Virus record (IMG/VR): IMGVR_UViG_3300048016_000081
Location: 1 to 54,984 of that record
Length of the DNA stretch: 54,984 nucleotides
Source of the DNA: a virus
Lineage: Duplodnaviria > Caudoviricetes
Reading direction: 5' to 3' (one strand)
Shown here: positions 4,234-29,867 of the stretch, piece by piece
Numbering within the stretch: position 1 is the stretch's first letter
How the letters are laid out: the number at the start of each line of letters is the position of its first letter
The notes under the pieces: generated by a model
Told to the model about the DNA's origin: nothing
Seen by the model: the letters and a program-made list of their open reading frames with translations, nothing else
The model's database searches: none
Position numbers and translations under genes: made by a program

Positions 4234-6380
<2,147 letters not shown>

Positions 6381-22337: not shown

Positions 22338-25300
22338 ATGGCTAATATTTGGGACGAGTACGAACGCGACCTGTTCTCCGAGAAAAAGAAAAAGGACGAC
22401 AAACCTGCTTCTTCCAATATCTGGGATGACATCGAGCAAGAGCATTTCAACCCAAAGCCAAAGGCTGGACTTACCTCTAGCCAAGTTTCTTCCTCCATTG
22501 ACCGTTACCAAGCTGGCCTATACGGCGTAGGCGAAGCTGTCGCTGAAGGCGTCGGAGCTAAAGATTCTGCCGAGTGGCTTAAAGGCCGCCGTGAAGAAAA
22601 CGAATTCTTGGCCGATAAAGCATCTCAACGCGCTCGCGACCTTGGTGCGGTTGACCAATTTAAAGATGTACATAGCCTAAGTGATTTTGGCAGCTACGCA
22701 AAAGGCTTGGCCATCCAATCCCTGCCATACGCTGGTGAAGCCTTGGCTGGAGGTCTTCTTGCTCGTGGCGCTATGTCTGGCACTCGCGCTGCCCTTACGG
22801 CGGCCAAAGAAGCTAAAGACGTTGCCGGCGTCGCCCGTGCTGAACGCGCCTTGAACGCAGGCTCCCAAGCTGGTGCAGTGGCCGCATCCTATCCGTCTGC
22901 TGTGGGCGATGTGCTGGGTAACCAGCGTGAACAATCTGATGGTGAGACTCGTGGTGGTGTCGCTGCTGCACTAGCCGTGCCGTATGCTGCGCTGAACGCG
23001 TTTGGTGTTGAGGGTGCTTTAGCCCGTGGCACTGCCTTCAAGAACACCGTGAACCTCCTTGACCGTGGCACCGGCTTGACTGGTGCTGCTGCTCGTACTG
23101 CTGCTACTGCAACTGGCGTGGCCCTCAAAGAAGGTGCTTCGGAAACTGGCCAAGAGATGCTGAACCAAGTTGGTCGCATGTCGGTTGACTCAAGCGAAGC
23201 CTTCCTAAGTGAAGCAGCCCAAGAGCGATTCAAAGAATCATTCATTGGTGGTGCAGCCCTTGGTGGTCTGGCCGGTGGTATCGGTGGCGGCTGGCGTCGT
23301 AGCTCTGCTGGTGGTAATGACATCTCCCAAGCCATGGGTAGCAAGGACGCTACACAGCCGGACATCACGACAACTCAGTTCACTCCGCCCCCTCCACCCC
23401 CCGCTGCTGATATAACTGGCACCCCGTCTGTTGTTTCTACGCAACAGACCATTCCTTCGGCTCCGGCAGTCGTAGGTGGTACTACGGATATTGCACAGGC
23501 GCAAGCCCAAGCTCAGGCTGCCCAACAACAACAGCAGATGCAGGAACAGCAGCAGGCTGCTCGCGAAGAGTTCACTCAGCGCTTTGGCGGTGTGCGCCCA
23601 GCCTTGGATGAGAATGGCCAGCCTACGCAAAGCGTGGTGTTCCAGAACAAGACATACCACACCCGCGACGAGCTCAATGCTGCCGTGGACAAACTGGTAG
23701 CTAAAGATCAGACTAAGGACGACCATGCTCGTCAAGTACAAGCTGCATTTACCAAGACTTACTCTACTCAAGAGAAGACCCCGAACGTAAACTCAGTTGT
23801 CTCCCAGACCAGCCGGTACACCAATCGCACTGCATCTGTGGAAGAGGCTGCCGCACGAATTAACATCGAGATCGCCACACTGGTGGGCCAAGGTAAAAAG
23901 CTGGATGACACTAAGTTATCTAAGCTGGCCGAGTTTTACGAGAACCTTACTGGTGTGACAGCACCAGCTTACGCAGCCGCTGAACAAGCACAACCAACAG
24001 GAGTTAACAATGGAAAACTGCAACTGCAAAACGATGCCGGGCTTCGAGAAGTACCAGTCACAGGCGGAGCAACAGAAACAAACGATGGACAAGCTGGGGG
24101 TGTACGACCCGCTGTGCTTCAATCCGTCGGAGCAACAAGTGTCGGAGCGGGACCGCTTGACCTCCAAGCTGGACAGCCATCAACAGGCGGAGTACGGACA
24201 AGCACCGGAGATGTATCCAATGCTGCCGGTGGCGATGCCACGCAAGCGCAAGTAAATGGGCAAGCTCAAGCAACCGTTCCAAGTGCCGCCCAAGTCACCG
24301 ACGAACGACTCCCTAATGAAAATCTTGGGTCAGTTCCTCCAGTACAACAAGAGCAGTCAGTTGAAGAACAACGAGCCGAAGAAGTCCCCAACTTAATTCG
24401 CTCCGCGCTTCGCATGATTTACAAGTCAGACCGCAAGGTCGACTTGTTGTTGCTCTTGACCGAAAAAACACAGCGCAGTGACTACGCCGCAATCGCTAAG
24501 GAATACGGAGTAACCGAGCAGTACGTTAAGGAGCTGGCGGCAGAAGCCATTACTGACAAAGGTAAAACTTTCCCCCGTTTCATTGAAGCCAACATTGACA
24601 AGTTCATGGCCGCAGTCAACGTACAAGCGGAGCAATCCGGTATTAGCGTACTAGAAGCTCTCGATGCGTTGCAGACTATCCATGACGCCTACGAGGGCGG
24701 GCTCGCTTCCCAATTAGGCGTGGAAGTGAATGAGGGCGACCTCATTAATGCTGGTATGGAAATCCAGAATCTCAAAGAGCGCACTGACAATGAAGGCAAA
24801 GGTACTGGCAAAGTAGACCGCACCAACGTATCCGACTTGGCCGAAGAAGGCAACAAGATGGAAGCCTTGATGCAACAGTACTTGGACCTGTCCAATGAGC
24901 TGGAAGCTGCCACTGAGGCCAATGACGAGCGTGTTCAAGAGCTGGAAGAGCAAGTCGCAGAGTTAACTACAAAAATCGCCGCCGCCGAGAAGAAAGAAAA
25001 AGCTCGCGTTCGCGCCACGGCTGGAAAACAAGCACCAAAGGAAACTGAAAATGCCGTTCAAGTCGAAAGCACAGATGAGGGAGATGTTCGCGAACCAGCC
25101 GGAGGTAGCGAAACGGTGGGCGAAGGAAACGCCGAACCCCAAAAGCCTGCCAGAAAAACTAAGCAAGCCAAAGTCGAAGACAACGCCGACCAAGCCGCGC
25201 CGGAAATAAGAACTCCGCAAGAGCAGTATGACGCTCTGGCCGCCACAACCAATCTGTTACCTCCGTACGAGGCATTGGATGAACGCGAGCGTGCTCAAAT

Positions 25301-28300
25301 AGAAGACCAAGCCTATCAAGGTAAGTTGACTCTTGCGTCATTGAACACCATGTTCTCGGGCAACGCCAAGTTCGGTAAAGACGTTCGCGCTATCAATCCG
25401 TACACCGTGGCTGAGCTGACCAAAGATATTGAAGATTTTGTTCGTGCATCAATCTCATCGCGTAAGCTGGTGATAGTTAACTCAGTTGAGGACTTGACGA
25501 ACTCTGCTGATAAGGTTGTAAAACAGATTGGTGCCGTGCTTGCCGTTGAAGGCGCGTATGGTGTTGCAGTAAATGGCCGTGCCTTCCTGATTGCAAACCG
25601 TATCGAAAAAGGTATGGGTCGTGCCAAGTTTATGCACGAGGTCGGAGCTCACATAGGGCTAGAGAATCTGCTACCTAAAGCAACATATGACCGCCTTGTC
25701 GCCCAGATTAAAAAGTGGACAAACTCTGAGGCTGACACTGATGAAGTTACCTTGGCTGCCAGAGCTGAGATGCGTGTCCTCAACGCTAACACTCCTGCCG
25801 CTGACTATGACGCAGAACTGCTGGCTTACTTTATTGAAGAAGCTGTCCAAGCCGGCATTGACCCAACCGCTTCTGGCAAAGAGACTGGTGCTCTGCGCGA
25901 GTGGTTCCGTACGTTGTGGGCTGCGTTTAAGGTTGCTGTGCGTAAGCTGGGGTACAACCCTGAGGCCATGACTGCGCAAGACATTGTGGATATGGCTTTT
26001 GGCGCTGCTCGCTTGGAGATGTCAGGTACGTACCACGGCACTGCTGCTAACTTCCGTAACTTCCGTAATGAGTACATTGGCTCTGGCGAAGGGGCTACCG
26101 CTTATGGCTGGGGTACATACCTTGCCGAACGCTATGGGATTGCTAAGGGGTATTTTGAAGCTGACGTGCGTCGTAAGACCAAGGATGCCCCCGTTACGAA
26201 TCCAGCGCAGGCGGTACAGGATTTCTTTGGTTTTGGGAAGCTGGTAAAGCCAGACGGCAGCCTCATGCGCGTTGATACCTCAGTTGCTGATGACGAGCTG
26301 TTTAACTACAACGCCACAGTGGCAGAGCAACCACAACGGGTGAAGGACGCTATTAAGTCCATGCTTGACCCCATCGCAGATGAAGTGTTAGATCGCACCA
26401 ACTCTGACGTGGATGAGCTCACTGGGCGAGACCTCTTTGGTACGGGGGAGAATGACCTCGGCTTGTTGAGCCGCTTAATCATGGACGACGTGCTAGTCGC
26501 CGACGGTGCCAAGTTCAACAAAGCTGTGCAGCAAGGCGAATTCCACAAGGCAGCGTCACTGTTGCTCGAGGAAGCTGGTATCGCAGGCATTAAGCATCTG
26601 GATGCTCGTAGCCGTGGCACCGCCACTAGCGTCATTCAGTTCCGTGGGAAAGCATACAACCGAGATGAGCTGCGGGACGCTGCCCGAGCTGCTTATGCAG
26701 CCAAAGATGAGCAGCAGACCTTTGAGATGGGCATGCTACGAAGCCTGTTACAGAACGGGATTGACCACGTCAGAGCTATGCACCAGTCCAAGCAAGCGTA
26801 TTACGAGCGCTTGTTCTACAAGACTGACAAAGAATCCGCTGAGAAGTTCAAAGTTCCTTTCGACGAAGAGCAAGCTCGCGCTGACGCAAAGCGAAAAACT
26901 AAAGACTTGTTTGAGACCAAAGCGCTCGACTGGCTGGACAAGCACGAGGCTGAGATTTCCATGGCGGAGAATCCGCGCACATACAACCGTATTTTGTTTA
27001 GTGATAAGAACATCTTCCGTGTTGGCACCCAAGTGGCCGCAGATCGCCAACGCATGCGCTTTGGTAAAAATATGTCTACCCGCCTGAACGAAGGACTAGA
27101 AAACAATCTCCCCGCCTCGGTGGTAAAGCCTGCTAAGTCTGTAGTGTCTACAATGGGTGCTGCCGTGAAGAACGGCTTGTTGGCTGTGGGTATCACTGAA
27201 GATGTAGTCAACGCCGCTAGCAAGTACATGCGCTCCGCTCAGGATTACCTGACTGCTCAGTACGCTCGCCAGAAGACTCGCCTCGAGTTTGAACAGCGCA
27301 TTGAGGCTATCCTCGACTCGTTCGACAAGCTGCCCAAGAACCTCCAAGGTGAAGACGCTGGCAGCGTGAACCGCTACATCTTGGACTCCACGATGAGCAA
27401 GAAGTGGGGCTACTACCCCGGTGAAAAGCGCATTGGCACAAAGTTGTTTGAGGTTGACCCAGACTTAGAGAAGCGCTTCCTTGCGTTCCCACCTGCTGCC
27501 CAGCAACTAATTCGTGACGTGTTTGAGCACGGCTACACCGCCCTCAAGGCTAAGAGCGACGCTATTGATGTAGCAGTTGAGCGTGAGTTTGCTGAACGCA
27601 CCAAGGCCGCCGCAGGCGATGCTGACCTATTAGATGAAGTGGCTACTGCCAAGAAGCTGATGCGTACTCAGTTGAGCAGCATCCAGAACGTCGACTTCAC
27701 TACCCCCTACGCCTACCTCGGTCGTTACGGCGACTACGTCGTGGCAGCCAAGTCTGCTGAGTTTAAGTACTGGGAAGGCGTTGCTGCTGAGAAGGGTGAG
27801 AACAAAGAACGTGCCGCTGCATGGTTGGCTGAGAATACTTCCAACCCAGACCACTACGTTGTACAGTTTGCTGAGACCCAAGGTGAGGCTGACTCGATTG
27901 CTGCTGATCTGATTGCCACTGGCAAGTTCGACATGGACGGCACTGAGGCTGGCCCCAAAGAAGACATCGGTTCTTACATTGGTTCTGATGTCCACCTCGC
28001 TGTAGCGCGTCTGCGCAACTTGATCTCTCGCCAAGAAGGCGAAAGCGGTGAGGGCAACTCTGACCTCAACCGTATGATTTCTGACCTGTACCTGACGACT
28101 GCTGCTGAAAACAGTGCTCGTAAGTCTGAGATCATGCGTAAGTACGTGGCCGGTGCAAACGGAAACATGATGCGTAACTTGGCCACGTCTGGCCGAGCCG
28201 ATGCCCACTTCCTGAGCACAATGAAACACAACGACGATGTGGTGGATGCCCTCGAGCGCATGCGCAACGAAGCCAAGGGCAACGTGCGTAACGCAATGCC

Positions 28301-29867
28301 CATCTACAACGAGTTGTTCAAACGCCAGACAGACAGCCTTGAGTACAAGTCGCCATCGACTTTGAGCCTCGCGTTGACTCGGGCCACATCCGTGTGGTTC
28401 TTGGCTACTAGCCCTGCGTTCTACCTGCAACAGATGCTGCAAACTACTGTGCTGTCGCTGCCTTATATGTCTGGTCGCCTCGGTTACTTCCGTTCTGCTC
28501 GCGCCATCAAGGCTGCATACAGTGACGTGGCTACGCTGGTCAAGGGCATGGGTATCAACGAGCACATTGATTTCTCTAAGGCTCCAGCTGATGTGCGCCC
28601 TATGCTCCAGACTCTGGTTGGCATGGGCAAGATTGACATTGGTATTGACGCCGACGCCAAGGCTCGTGCTGGCGAGAACAATGTGCTGAATACAGTGATG
28701 CGCAAACTCCAAGGTGTGAACAACCGCATTGAAGCTGTGAACCGTGCGACTGCCGCGATTGCTGCGTACCGTGGATACATCCAACGCTACGGCGCTGGTA
28801 ATACTGACGCTGCCACTAAGTTCGCTGCTGATGTCGTGTCCAACACACACGGCTCATACGATGGGTTTAACACGCCGCGAGTTCTGAATAGCGACATTGG
28901 CCGTTTGGTTGGTCAGTTCAAGCGCTTCCAGATCATCCAGCTCTCTATGCTGGGCAAGCTTATCAACACATCCTTCAAGGGCGCAAGTCCCGAGGAACGA
29001 GTTGTGGCTCGCCGCGCATTGGCTTTCATCACTGGCCACATGGCTGTCGTGGGCGGCGCACTGGGTGTTCCTTTTGTACAACAAGTTGCTAGCTTAATGC
29101 TTGCTGCCTTCGGCGACGATGACGAACCTAAGAACCTTGAGTACACACTGCGCCAAGCCATTGGCGACGAGACTATGGCTAACCTGCTCCTGAACGGTGT
29201 GCCCGCTGCGGCTGGCGTGAACCTCAGTGGTAAGCTGGGTATGGGTAACGTGGCTTCTATCCTGCCGTTTACTGACGTGGACTTGTCCACTCGCTCTGGC
29301 TACGAGAAGACGATGGTCGGATTGATGGGCCCATTCCTTGGCGGTCTGGCTCCTAAGTTTGCCGATGGCGCTGGTATGGTTGCCAAGGGTGAGTACTACA
29401 AGGGTCTGGAGCTGCTGATGCCTAACGGTATTGGTAACGCAATGAAGGGTGCTCGTATCGCCAACGAAGGTGTGACGATGCGCAACGGCGATGTAGTCCT
29501 GAAGCCAGAAGAAATTAGCATGGTAGACGCTGCGTTCCAAGCTGTTGGTTTGCCAACGACTACCCTCACTGGCCGTCAGTACACCCAGAAGATCGCAATG
29601 GACTTTGACAAGTTCTACAGCACCAAGGCTGCCGACATCAAGGGCGCGTACGTCAATGCCAACCGCGATGGCGACACGGAAAGTATGGCGGAGGCCCGTA
29701 AAGATTGGGAAGACCTGCAAGCATCACGCCGCAAGAATGGCTATAAAATACAGCCAATGTCGGAGCTGTTTAAGGCTACCGTTGCTGCCCGTAGGCGTGA
29801 AGCTGGTGTGGTAGATGGCGTTGAGACTACTAAGTCCAACAAAGAGTTTGTGAAGAACATCATCTAA
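22338..29867 (+). CDS. Giant polyvalent ejection protein (2509 aa) with HTH-like, zincin-like and ADP-ribosyltransferase-like regions
   Basis: EGASETGQE membrane-type N-terminal region; YAAIAKEYGVTEQYV; MHEVGAHIG...ELLAY; YHGT..NF..F...IGSGEGATAYGWGTY; long helical C-terminal region. Confidence 0.85.
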   Translation: MANIWDEYERDLFSEKKKKDDKPASSNIWDDIEQEHFNPKPKAGLTSSQVSSSIDRYQAGLYGVGEAVAEGVGAKDSAEWLKGRREENEFLADKASQRARDLGAVDQFKDVHSLSDFGSYAKGLAIQSLPYAGEALAGGLLARGAMSGTRAALTAAKEAKDVAGVARAERALNAGSQAGAVAASYPSAVGDVLGNQREQSDGETRGGVAAALAVPYAALNAFGVEGALARGTAFKNTVNLLDRGTGLTGAAARTAATATGVALKEGASETGQEMLNQVGRMSVDSSEAFLSEAAQERFKESFIGGAALGGLAGGIGGGWRRSSAGGNDISQAMGSKDATQPDITTTQFTPPPPPPAADITGTPSVVSTQQTIPSAPAVVGGTTDIAQAQAQAQAAQQQQQMQEQQQAAREEFTQRFGGVRPALDENGQPTQSVVFQNKTYHTRDELNAAVDKLVAKDQTKDDHARQVQAAFTKTYSTQEKTPNVNSVVSQTSRYTNRTASVEEAAARINIEIATLVGQGKKLDDTKLSKLAEFYENLTGVTAPAYAAAEQAQPTGVNNGKLQLQNDAGLREVPVTGGATETNDGQAGGVRPAVLQSVGATSVGAGPLDLQAGQPSTGGVRTSTGDVSNAAGGDATQAQVNGQAQATVPSAAQVTDERLPNENLGSVPPVQQEQSVEEQRAEEVPNLIRSALRMIYKSDRKVDLLLLLTEKTQRSDYAAIAKEYGVTEQYVKELAAEAITDKGKTFPRFIEANIDKFMAAVNVQAEQSGISVLEALDALQTIHDAYEGGLASQLGVEVNEGDLINAGMEIQNLKERTDNEGKGTGKVDRTNVSDLAEEGNKMEALMQQYLDLSNELEAATEANDERVQELEEQVAELTTKIAAAEKKEKARVRATAGKQAPKETENAVQVESTDEGDVREPAGGSETVGEGNAEPQKPARKTKQAKVEDNADQAAPEIRTPQEQYDALAATTNLLPPYEALDERERAQIEDQAYQGKLTLASLNTMFSGNAKFGKDVRAINPYTVAELTKDIEDFVRASISSRKLVIVNSVEDLTNSADKVVKQIGAVLAVEGAYGVAVNGRAFLIANRIEKGMGRAKFMHEVGAHIGLENLLPKATYDRLVAQIKKWTNSEADTDEVTLAARAEMRVLNANTPAADYDAELLAYFIEEAVQAGIDPTASGKETGALREWFRTLWAAFKVAVRKLGYNPEAMTAQDIVDMAFGAARLEMSGTYHGTAANFRNFRNEYIGSGEGATAYGWGTYLAERYGIAKGYFEADVRRKTKDAPVTNPAQAVQDFFGFGKLVKPDGSLMRVDTSVADDELFNYNATVAEQPQRVKDAIKSMLDPIADEVLDRTNSDVDELTGRDLFGTGENDLGLLSRLIMDDVLVADGAKFNKAVQQGEFHKAASLLLEEAGIAGIKHLDARSRGTATSVIQFRGKAYNRDELRDAARAAYAAKDEQQTFEMGMLRSLLQNGIDHVRAMHQSKQAYYERLFYKTDKESAEKFKVPFDEEQARADAKRKTKDLFETKALDWLDKHEAEISMAENPRTYNRILFSDKNIFRVGTQVAADRQRMRFGKNMSTRLNEGLENNLPASVVKPAKSVVSTMGAAVKNGLLAVGITEDVVNAASKYMRSAQDYLTAQYARQKTRLEFEQRIEAILDSFDKLPKNLQGEDAGSVNRYILDSTMSKKWGYYPGEKRIGTKLFEVDPDLEKRFLAFPPAAQQLIRDVFEHGYTALKAKSDAIDVAVEREFAERTKAAAGDADLLDEVATAKKLMRTQLSSIQNVDFTTPYAYLGRYGDYVVAAKSAEFKYWEGVAAEKGENKERAAAWLAENTSNPDHYVVQFAETQGEADSIAADLIATGKFDMDGTEAGPKEDIGSYIGSDVHLAVARLRNLISRQEGESGEGNSDLNRMISDLYLTTAAENSARKSEIMRKYVAGANGNMMRNLATSGRADAHFLSTMKHNDDVVDALERMRNEAKGNVRNAMPIYNELFKRQTDSLEYKSPSTLSLALTRATSVWFLATSPAFYLQQMLQTTVLSLPYMSGRLGYFRSARAIKAAYSDVATLVKGMGINEHIDFSKAPADVRPMLQTLVGMGKIDIGIDADAKARAGENNVLNTVMRKLQGVNNRIEAVNRATAAIAAYRGYIQRYGAGNTDAATKFAADVVSNTHGSYDGFNTPRVLNSDIGRLVGQFKRFQIIQLSMLGKLINTSFKGASPEERVVARRALAFITGHMAVVGGALGVPFVQQVASLMLAAFGDDDEPKNLEYTLRQAIGDETMANLLLNGVPAAAGVNLSGKLGMGNVASILPFTDVDLSTRSGYEKTMVGLMGPFLGGLAPKFADGAGMVAKGEYYKGLELLMPNGIGNAMKGARIANEGVTMRNGDVVLKPEEISMVDAAFQAVGLPTTTLTGRQYTQKIAMDFDKFYSTKAADIKGAYVNANRDGDTESMAEARKDWEDLQASRRKNGYKIQPMSELFKATVAARRREAGVVDGVETTKSNKEFVKNII
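24010..24255 (+). CDS. Nested +1-frame gene A inside the giant gene (81 aa)
   Basis: AGGAG-ttaaca-ATG; host frame turns low-complexity with rare CGA/GGA/ACA codons here. Confidence 0.55.
   Translation: MENCNCKTMPGFEKYQSQAEQQKQTMDKLGVYDPLCFNPSEQQVSERDRLTSKLDSHQQAEYGQAPEMYPMLPVAMPRKRK
24256..24396 (+). CDS. Nested +1-frame gene B (46 aa), abuts gene A as TAA-ATG
   Basis: MGKLKQPFQVPPKSPTNDSLMKILGQFLQYNKSSQLKNNEPKKSPT. Confidence 0.5.
   Translation: MGKLKQPFQVPPKSPTNDSLMKILGQFLQYNKSSQLKNNEPKKSPT
25051..25209 (+). CDS. Nested +1-frame gene C (52 aa), small basic MPFKSKAQ-type phage protein
   Basis: AAGGA RBS; MPFKSKAQMREMFANQPEVAKRWAKETPNPKSLPEKLSKPKSKTTPTKPRRK. Confidence 0.75.
   Translation: MPFKSKAQMREMFANQPEVAKRWAKETPNPKSLPEKLSKPKSKTTPTKPRRK

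Follow-up and report, generated by a model that had tools for sequence, protein, structure and literature searches.

A predicted small basic gene embedded in the +1 frame of a giant virion-protein gene in a Caudoviricetes genome

Embedded genes are textbook material in phiX174 and in the lambda Rz/Rz1 pair, and in phiX174 the overprinted genes B, K and E allow one stretch of DNA to encode two proteins, with suppression of synonymous variation in the host gene. Giant virion genes are common in environmental phages and, to our knowledge, have not been searched for embedded genes. In the consulted sections of a survey of phage spanins, Rz/Rz1-type pairs occur as embedded, overlapped or separated genes, the embedded spanin gene is usually missed by gene callers, its product is rich in disorder-promoting residues, and no spanin family with both embedded and separated members is reported (Kongari et al. 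2018, PMC6139136). Here we describe the virus record IMGVR_UViG_3300048016_000081 (the window, i.e. the whole stretch of 54,984 bp that was analysed), in which an open reading frame (ORF) of 52 codons at 25051..25209 is, judging from its sequence, very probably a genuine protein-coding gene; it lies entirely inside a giant virion-protein gene, in the +1 frame.

The locus resembles lambda Rz/Rz1 in that a small gene lies wholly within the +1 frame of a larger phage gene, Rz1 being translated from its own start. As in Rz1-type embedded genes, we found same-strand out-of-frame containment, an ATG and Shine-Dalgarno (SD) sequence of its own, and distinct purifying selection. It differs in its host, which encodes a virion/polyvalent-type protein of 2,509 amino acids (aa) and not a 150-aa i-spanin, and in the placement of the overlap in an unconstrained linker. 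With phiX174-type overprints it shares the reading of two frames from one stretch and the suppressed synonymous variation of the host, but, given its many free-standing relatives, it is no de novo overprint. What appears new is the giant virion/polyvalent-type host, the position in an unconstrained linker, the presence of two embedded genes in one host gene and the occurrence of unrelated families in the same position; relative to the consulted sections of the spanin survey, the distribution of one family over nested, adjacent, separate and fused states is new as well.

Position, start signal and product of the embedded frame

The embedded ORF (hereafter nested gene 1), its host and its start signal are located as follows.

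22338..29867, plus strand: host gene, 2,509 codons (2509 aa), giant virion/polyvalent-type protein, from the ORF list and translation
25051..25209, plus strand: nested gene 1, 52 codons from an ATG, +1 frame, over host residues 905-958, from sequence, translation and family conservation
25038..25042, plus strand: Shine-Dalgarno-like AAGGA, 8 nt 5' of the nested gene 1 ATG

The offset between the two genes (25051-22338 = 2713 = 3k+1) corresponds to the +1 frame, and the sequence around the ATG at 25051 reads caccAAAGGAaactgaaaATGccgttcaag. The product, MPFKSKAQMREMFANQPEVAKRWAKETPNPKSLPEKLSKPKSKTTPTKPRRK, has a mass of 6.1 kDa, an isoelectric point (pI) of 10.9 and 15 Lys and Arg versus 4 Asp and Glu residues. 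Over the same bases the host frame reads KETENAVQVESTDEGDVREPAGGSETVGEGNAEPQKPARKTKQ, and its 53-residue stretch ENAVQ...AAPEI is acidic (pI 4.3). An initial annotation of the window had reported this 52-codon ORF together with the AAGGA and had quoted the host-frame linker; the sequence, the translation and the ORF list agree with the former, and the host translation over 25051..25209 is identical to the quoted one. A profile search of the whole record recovered nested gene 1 as the single copy of its family (E 5.2e-26). An o-spanin (Rz1) identity was considered and rejected, as inspection of the translation revealed no Cys (and thus no lipobox Cys), no lipoprotein signal and no hydrophobic signal segment.

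The length of the ORF is within chance: 25 ORFs of at least 20 aa were found within 1.3 kb, one of them a 94-aa plus-strand ORF at 25687..25971. The significance of nested gene 1 comes from conservation instead.

We examined the start signals of the nested family members, which are described below. An SD of at least 4 nt with a spacer of 4-9 precedes 36 of the 42 distinct nested starts, compared with 18.9% of 5,577 control ATGs taken from within these host genes (binomial tail 1e-20, if the contexts are independent). The remaining six starts lie in A-rich, low-GC contexts, those of Flavobacterium phages among them. Such spacing also bears on a very unlikely alternative, a programmed +1 frameshift out of the giant frame, which would cut the giant protein short and add a basic extension to its C-terminus in place of an independent small protein. 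The ORF does lie on the same strand inside the host ORF, and in the window no +1 stop interrupts the 28 codons that precede its ATG. However, 22 of the 42 contexts have a +1 stop only 0-9 codons ahead of the ATG (0 in L065 and 1 in L025, for example), the SD is properly spaced from the ATG, and conservation begins exactly at Met1, like in free-standing genes, with the motif at residue 1 in 128 of the 150 best representatives of the family profile.

As the preferred reading, we propose that ribosomes would initiate independently on the giant gene's late mRNA, using the SD and ATG of nested gene 1 in the manner of lambda Rz1. The template is likely the giant gene's own mRNA, with no sigma-70-like promoter nearby (none found within 23700..25400, 0.8 expected). 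The resulting 6-kDa product would have MPFKSKAQ..W..ETP..LP as its conserved N-terminal core, followed by a tail rich in Lys and Pro, and the giant polypeptide would read the nested stretch as a disordered acidic linker.

Nested copies and the frame under constraint

A search of IMG/VR gave at least 403 confirmed family members among the 600 pattern matches listed, and the best 80 were kept as loci. Copies of at least 30 codons in these 80 loci, three annotated records and the window numbered 83, with a 10-codon remnant in L002 excluded. Same-strand open frames of 437-3,260 codons enclose 22 of the 83, and the offset is +1 in all of these. With all locus sets taken together (94 locus entries; the counts include related genomes), there are 72 distinct nested starts, every one of them an ATG and every one at +1. 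The nested examples come from uncultured viruses except for the elemoviruses. With the nested stretch masked, the giant hosts fall into two families unconnected by BLAST and three singletons.

Two of the annotated records illustrate how the nested form escapes annotation. Podoviridae ctfjg026 (MW202828.1) carries a 43-codon ATG ORF in the +1 frame of a coding sequence (CDS) for 3,860 aa, and Flavobacterium phage elemoC_14-1A (MT497067.1) a 42-codon ATG ORF in the +1 frame of a CDS for 3,695 aa; the nested ORF is unannotated in both GenBank records inspected. None of five nested products that were looked up is present among approximately 15 billion called proteins.

Two further sets of loci were ascertained through the host proteins. 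Set (a) was collected with an alignment (A2) covering the last 937 aa of the giant protein and comprises 39 loci at 34-88% identity. An intact ATG +1 family ORF is present in 27 of the 29 loci with a 5'-complete giant ORF and in 6 of the 10 that are 5'-cut; in at least one of the other four, L087, the cut falls downstream of the site. Set (b), obtained with an alignment of an HExxH domain (A3), comprises 80 loci of a second host family that is not linked to that of the window by BLAST. They are distributed as follows.

39 loci: small gene nested at +1, with 87-626 codons between it and the downstream domain match
7 loci: free-standing same-strand copy past the end of the giant ORF
32 loci: no copy, giant ORF 5'-complete
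2 loci: no copy, giant ORF 5'-cut

Five of the seven downstream copies (L161, L189, L190, L197, L199) start 2 nt past the stop of the giant gene, one starts approximately 98 nt past it, and one comes after the final part of a split giant gene. L198 and L074/L187 likewise have the small gene behind a giant ORF or its last part, the giant protein of L074 being divided among several genes.

To compare the two frames, a host-guided alignment of 30 distinct host segments was used, and nucleotide diversity was calculated by host codon position (positions 1 / 2 / 3).

Upstream flank: 0.46 / 0.42 / 0.62
Overlap: 0.38 / 0.26 / 0.20
Downstream flank: 0.50 / 0.44 / 0.63

In the overlap, the host wobble position turns into the least variable one, and host position 1, which is the wobble position of the nested frame, becomes the most variable. 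Ratios of nonsynonymous to synonymous differences (pN/pS, pooled Nei-Gojobori) are given below; they pool non-independent pairs at high pS (0.5-0.7) and are rough, indicating direction and not precise magnitude.

Flanks: host frame 0.63 and 0.69, +1 frame about 1.0
Nested gene 1 overlap: host frame 1.50, +1 frame 0.41

In alignments guided by the small protein, pN/pS was 0.41 for nested and 0.40 for free copies. The sequences thus reveal nested codons under purifying selection as strong as in free-standing copies. They also show a host frame that has no amino-acid constraint over the overlap and from which stops are nevertheless kept out: over the first 40 codons it is free of stops in 41 of 41 distinct nested copies versus 24 of 53 free ones (Fisher p = 6e-10, the copies being related). 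In concordance, the codon for Phe3 is TTC in all nested copies and variable in free copies, because TTT would create a TAA in the host frame. The initial annotation had proposed to look for homologues, for stops or frameshifts in the +1 frame of relatives, and for the frame under selection. Homologues proved to be both free-standing and nested, the +1 frame is open with its ATG in nearly all of the 5'-complete giant genes found via the host protein, and purifying selection acts on the nested frame and not on that of the host, all in line with its proposal.

These data also allow the simplest alternative to be weighed, namely that the ORF arose by chance or is a by-product, its +1 similarity mirroring host-protein conservation without a separate product. 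Alternative frames in this region do contain many ORFs of such a length. We surveyed 1,293 alternative-frame pieces of 113 distinct giant ORFs, and 18 of the 21 clusters listed were by-products of this kind, with a host identity equal to or above that of the alternative frame or within 5 points of it. Among the clusters listed, identity in the alternative frame was far above that of the host in three only: nested gene 1 (56% versus 35%), a second nested gene (64% versus 46%) and a third family (69% versus 49%), the latter two of which are described below. For nested gene 1, the host frame is thus the less conserved one over the same bases (medians), its third positions become the least variable, the pN/pS ratios of the two frames are reversed, and homologues that have no overlying giant frame show equal constraint. 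We therefore regard a by-product as highly improbable.

It is hardly credible, likewise, that the selected element is an antisense gene, or a nucleotide or RNA element that shares the same wobble positions. A minus-strand ORF of 85 codons (24963..25220) does have third positions that coincide with those of the nested ORF, and the antisense frame has no stop over the first 40 ORF codons in 23 of the 41 nested copies and 37 of the 53 free ones. It is, however, interrupted in the other 18 of 41 and 16 of 53, respectively, and in two annotated phages it is open for 24-25 codons only. The concentration of variation at the third positions of the plus-strand ORF, together with the conserved residues, start and SD, fits a protein and not an RNA.

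The small-protein family and its arrangements

Residues 3-32 of the window protein match phrog_1375, a family of unknown function (E 3.8e-4, 21.8 bits), and the relatives P0098, P0100, P0101 and P0102, in-frame fused forms among them, match it at E 9e-6 to 1e-7. This PHROG holds annotated free-standing phage proteins. Searches of Pfam, NCBIfam and PDB sequences returned nothing significant for the nested gene 1 family. A language-model search from homologue P0023 had DUF3008 (PF11450; score 0.88) as its nearest named cluster, likewise a family of small viral proteins and one whose N-terminal motif we take to be akin to ours, but a hidden Markov model (HMM) comparison did not confirm this lead. 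The DUF3008 HMM, with its curated cut-off of 24 bits, gave no match in the six frames of the window at E<=10, none among 31 members of the nested gene 1 family at E<=1 and none among five further members at E<=10. The MPFKSKAQ motif and shorter forms of it were not found mentioned in print, supplementary tables lying outside that search.

The family is large. A profile (A1) built from 31 small proteins and run against 1.84 billion representatives retrieved 3,160 clusters (50% identity) at E<=1e-3 and 566 at E<=1e-10. Its members are small proteins with a net charge of around +11. The invariance of MPFKSKAQ in the first sets is partly an artefact of seeding with words and patterns, and the host-ascertained sets show the variants MPFKSQAQ, MPFKNQAQ, MPYKS.AQ and MPVKSKAQ. 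The family is essentially viral: 185,579 prokaryote genomes yielded only 38 confirmed loci, every one in metagenome-assembled records.

Four arrangements were observed, with the gene free-standing, placed directly after a giant gene, fused in frame to the N-terminus of a larger protein, or nested in a giant gene. The initial annotation had pointed to free-standing relatives of the nested protein, and these do exist. In a word-indexed search, 90 of 94 candidate small proteins (37-89 aa) reach E<=1, the best at 2.9e-16. Among the 83 copies, 61 are not nested, and in many of them the TGA of the upstream gene overlaps the ATG. In Streptomyces phage FlowerPower, gp48 is a separate annotated CDS beside the holin gene and scores 27 bits against the family profile. 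The gene preceding a free copy encodes 959 aa in L032, at least 1,401 aa in L068 and 979 aa in L074. Among the contigs of metagenome-assembled genomes, two copies classed as free and small (L346, L354) actually lie under open frames of 396-399 codons, slightly below the 400-codon threshold, and the nested copy of L363 (5001.. (+)) is reduced to 22 codons by a stop and is possibly decaying.

Of the 150 best representatives, 74 exceed 100 aa, the longest reaching 1,163 aa. In the 55 representatives above 150 aa, GxxxGxxxG segments occur in 14 versus 0.9 expected from shuffles and HExxH at residues 147-175 in 4 versus 0.4 expected. Most fusion partners have no known domain, and one has a YkuD domain. 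In five proteins of 980-1,176 aa (P0098, P0100, P0101, P0208, P0243), the small domain forms the in-frame N-terminus, followed by low-complexity sequence and hydrophobic glycine-rich C-terminal segments. In four others of 297-406 aa (P0156, P0164, P0179, P0213), the small domain stands at the head of a protein with HExxH at residues 147-175, a spacing that resembles the distance from nested ORF to HExxH in the giant genes. An hhalign comparison of the HExxH regions of fused proteins and giant genes gave a non-significant E of 0.12, and we can only speculate that an HExxH gene was once captured and that the nested ORF represents its original N-terminus.

The window itself is a complete virus record with direct terminal repeats and a completeness estimate of 100%. 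Its plus-strand structural module contains TerL, a gene whose best match is phrog_332 (head-tail adaptor) and which has a weaker portal match, the major head protein, and internal virion and virion structural proteins (PHROG matches); the giant gene comes after the last two groups. Residues 1047-2489 of the giant protein, i.e. its C-terminal approximately 1,400 residues, match phrog_10089, 'DarB-like antirestriction', at E 2.1e-45, and the match is restricted to this C-terminal part. The ART-PolyVal model scored 19 bits against a cut-off of 31.2, and megablast of the giant gene against phage records gave no match. The label 'ejection protein' for the host is accordingly putative, its basis being only the neighbouring PHROG matches and the DarB-like C-terminal match. 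Around residues 1095-1105 the giant protein (P0002) reads FMHEVGAHIGLE, with HEVGAH (HExxxH) where the second host family has its canonical HExxH downstream of the nested gene; H[ED]xxH is found nowhere in P0002.

Polyvalent, P1 DarB-like proteins are the nearest described counterparts of the host, which is likewise a giant, putatively multi-module protein encoded in a virion module. Packaging of P1 DarB presumably needs small helper proteins. The nested product could be a small basic protein that is co-produced with the giant internal virion protein as its partner and is packaged or ejected with it or binds nucleic acid. We put this function forward tentatively, because the family is repeatedly tied to giant genes (nested in them, 2 nt past their stop, or after the last piece of a split one) and because other phages have it fused in frame, as the N-terminus, to glycine-zipper-rich proteins of 100-1,200 aa. 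A term search of the polyvalent-protein paper returned no passage on genes nested in other frames within the text covered (Iyer et al. 2017, PMC5512222).

A real gene whose function has nothing to do with the giant protein (host takeover, counter-defence or general nucleic-acid binding), using the linker as free coding space with late co-expression, is somewhat unlikely in our estimate. The recurrence of giant-gene linkage in four arrangements, with five loci starting 2 nt past the giant stop, speaks against it, and so does the enrichment of in-frame N-terminal fusions to large glycine-zipper proteins. On the other hand, free copies are found in varied contexts, such as after TerL (L057) or beside the holin gene in Streptomyces phages, many relatives of the host gene lack the nested gene, an unrelated small basic family can occupy the same position, and nesting at +1 is cheap. 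By composition, the host-like frame is stop-free across the whole ORF in 22 of 53 free copies versus 6 of 53 for the other frame, which makes +1 nesting intrinsically inexpensive.

Several observations weigh against an embedded gene that serves the giant protein. Besides the rough nature of the pN/pS ratios, the first locus set was ascertained via the small frame, and the tblastn matches in cultured phages are individually weak (E 0.09-0.6 among the matches listed), each of those listed beginning at residue 1. The two most divergent loci of set (a), L118 and L120, have no family copy anywhere in the locus. The family motif is found in none of the 34 copy-less loci of set (b) (34 of 80 HExxH-type hosts), and nested gene 1 is absent from all five whole records (90-100% complete) of copy-less HExxH-type hosts, as searched with a profile that recovers the window's copy at 5e-26; three of these five have the third nested family instead. 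Since nested gene 1 is missing from some hosts, it must be dispensable or replaceable. The bodies of the fusion partners have no similarity to the window's giant protein. The neighbours of free copies are diverse, 8 of 10 upstream genes having no PHROG match, one being TerL and one belonging to an uncharacterised family. An independent accessory function would fit fully with the patchy distribution and with the variety of settings in which free copies are found.

Further nested genes and a possible linker slot

The initial annotation had suggested that the linkers of giant proteins may hide more genes, and a second gene in the same host and a third family in related giant genes bear this out. 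A constraint scan of a full-length alignment (23 distinct giant ORFs, 392 windows) showed host position 3 to be less variable than position 1 in two stretches only, codons ~886-974, which correspond to nested gene 1, and codons ~550-660. The latter stretch contains the following elements.

24010..24255, plus strand: nested gene 2 (P0108), 81 aa, pI 6.6, +1 frame, over host residues 558-640, from the constraint scan
24000..24003, plus strand: Shine-Dalgarno GGAG, 6 nt 5' of the nested gene 2 ATG

Nested gene 2 is present with its ATG in 25 of the 28 5'-complete hosts of the window type, and all 25 have AAGGAG, AAAGGAG or AAAGGAA at the same distance. Its overlap has a pN/pS of 1.47 (host frame) and 0.39 (+1 frame), the host flanks giving 0.49 and 0.61. 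As with nested gene 1, the host gene reads the overlapped stretch as a linker that is acidic and poorly conserved. Seven homologues were found among called proteins, and searches of Pfam, NCBIfam and PDB sequences gave nothing significant and no family assignment. All 46 loci found via its similarity are nested at +1, with no free-standing copy seen among them; nested gene 2 may have arisen inside the host gene, perhaps as a de novo overprint.

The third family (MPLKKA...GKPRS..QILAIALS...) consists of small basic proteins of 56-63 aa. It lies in the +1 frame at codons 777-976 of nine hosts that have no nested gene 1.

L131:9153-9341, plus strand: third-family nested gene
L128, L134, L138, L141, L154, L156, L173, L182: further hosts of the third family

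Among the 80 loci found via this family, 55 are nested, at +1 throughout, and 25 are free-standing. Its overlap has a pN/pS of 1.83 in the host frame and 0.37 in the +1 frame. Profile comparison found it unrelated to the MPFKSKAQ family, and tblastn against phage records gave no match. The other 23 HExxH-type hosts revealed no convincing nested family.

From these data we tentatively suggest that giant internal-virion or polyvalent genes of many uncultured podophage-like viruses possess a conserved linker 'slot' that takes up unrelated small basic +1 genes as dedicated partners. The slot would be located in a disordered linker ~800-1,100 codons into the gene and, for one host family, 87-626 codons before the HExxH domain. 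It would accept at least two families, MPFKSKAQ and GKPRS..QILAIALS, that swap with adjacent, free-standing and in-frame-fused arrangements, with the hosts of the window type adding the 81-aa gene known as nested only. The slot proteins might act as cofactors for packaging or ejection of the giant protein or as binders of the DNA travelling with it, and embedding would fix the co-expression and co-inheritance of such small partners.

If this is true, the largest phage genes would in general contain a layer of coding sequence that annotation has passed over. The predicted hidden genes described here already imply that phage proteomes are systematically incomplete, and that the 'linkers' of giant proteins should not be treated as freely mutable or deletable in engineering. 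The nested gene 1 family, with its thousands of clusters and no assigned function, gains a genomic association, and its function can be tested in the cultured Flavobacterium elemoviruses. The spread of one family over nested, adjacent, separate and fused states also offers a natural case that is useful for studying how overlaps arise.

How often the nested state changed was estimated on a weakly resolved 51-column tree with 82 small proteins, of which 41 are nested and 41 free, and in which six state changes are most parsimonious and well-supported branches force at least two changes between nested and free. That the giant gene absorbed the small one, as the initial annotation proposed, is one possible direction of these changes. 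In the elemovirus giant gene of L002, a 10-codon +1 remnant at 5605..5637 (+), MPFKSKKLMK followed by a stop, lies ~130 codons upstream of the intact nested gene; the host frame repeats a QEDAVQKQ motif there, and the remnant looks like a decayed duplicate. Two window-type hosts, L093 and L098, carry another subtype of nested gene 1 that groups with nested L067 and free L023, L032 and L042 (support 99/95). This subtype (...AKEWASKYGVPKSLP...), shared by L093, L095 and L098, groups with free-standing genes, and these are exactly the three hosts without nested gene 2, a coincidence that suggests exchange of a whole N-terminal or linker module.

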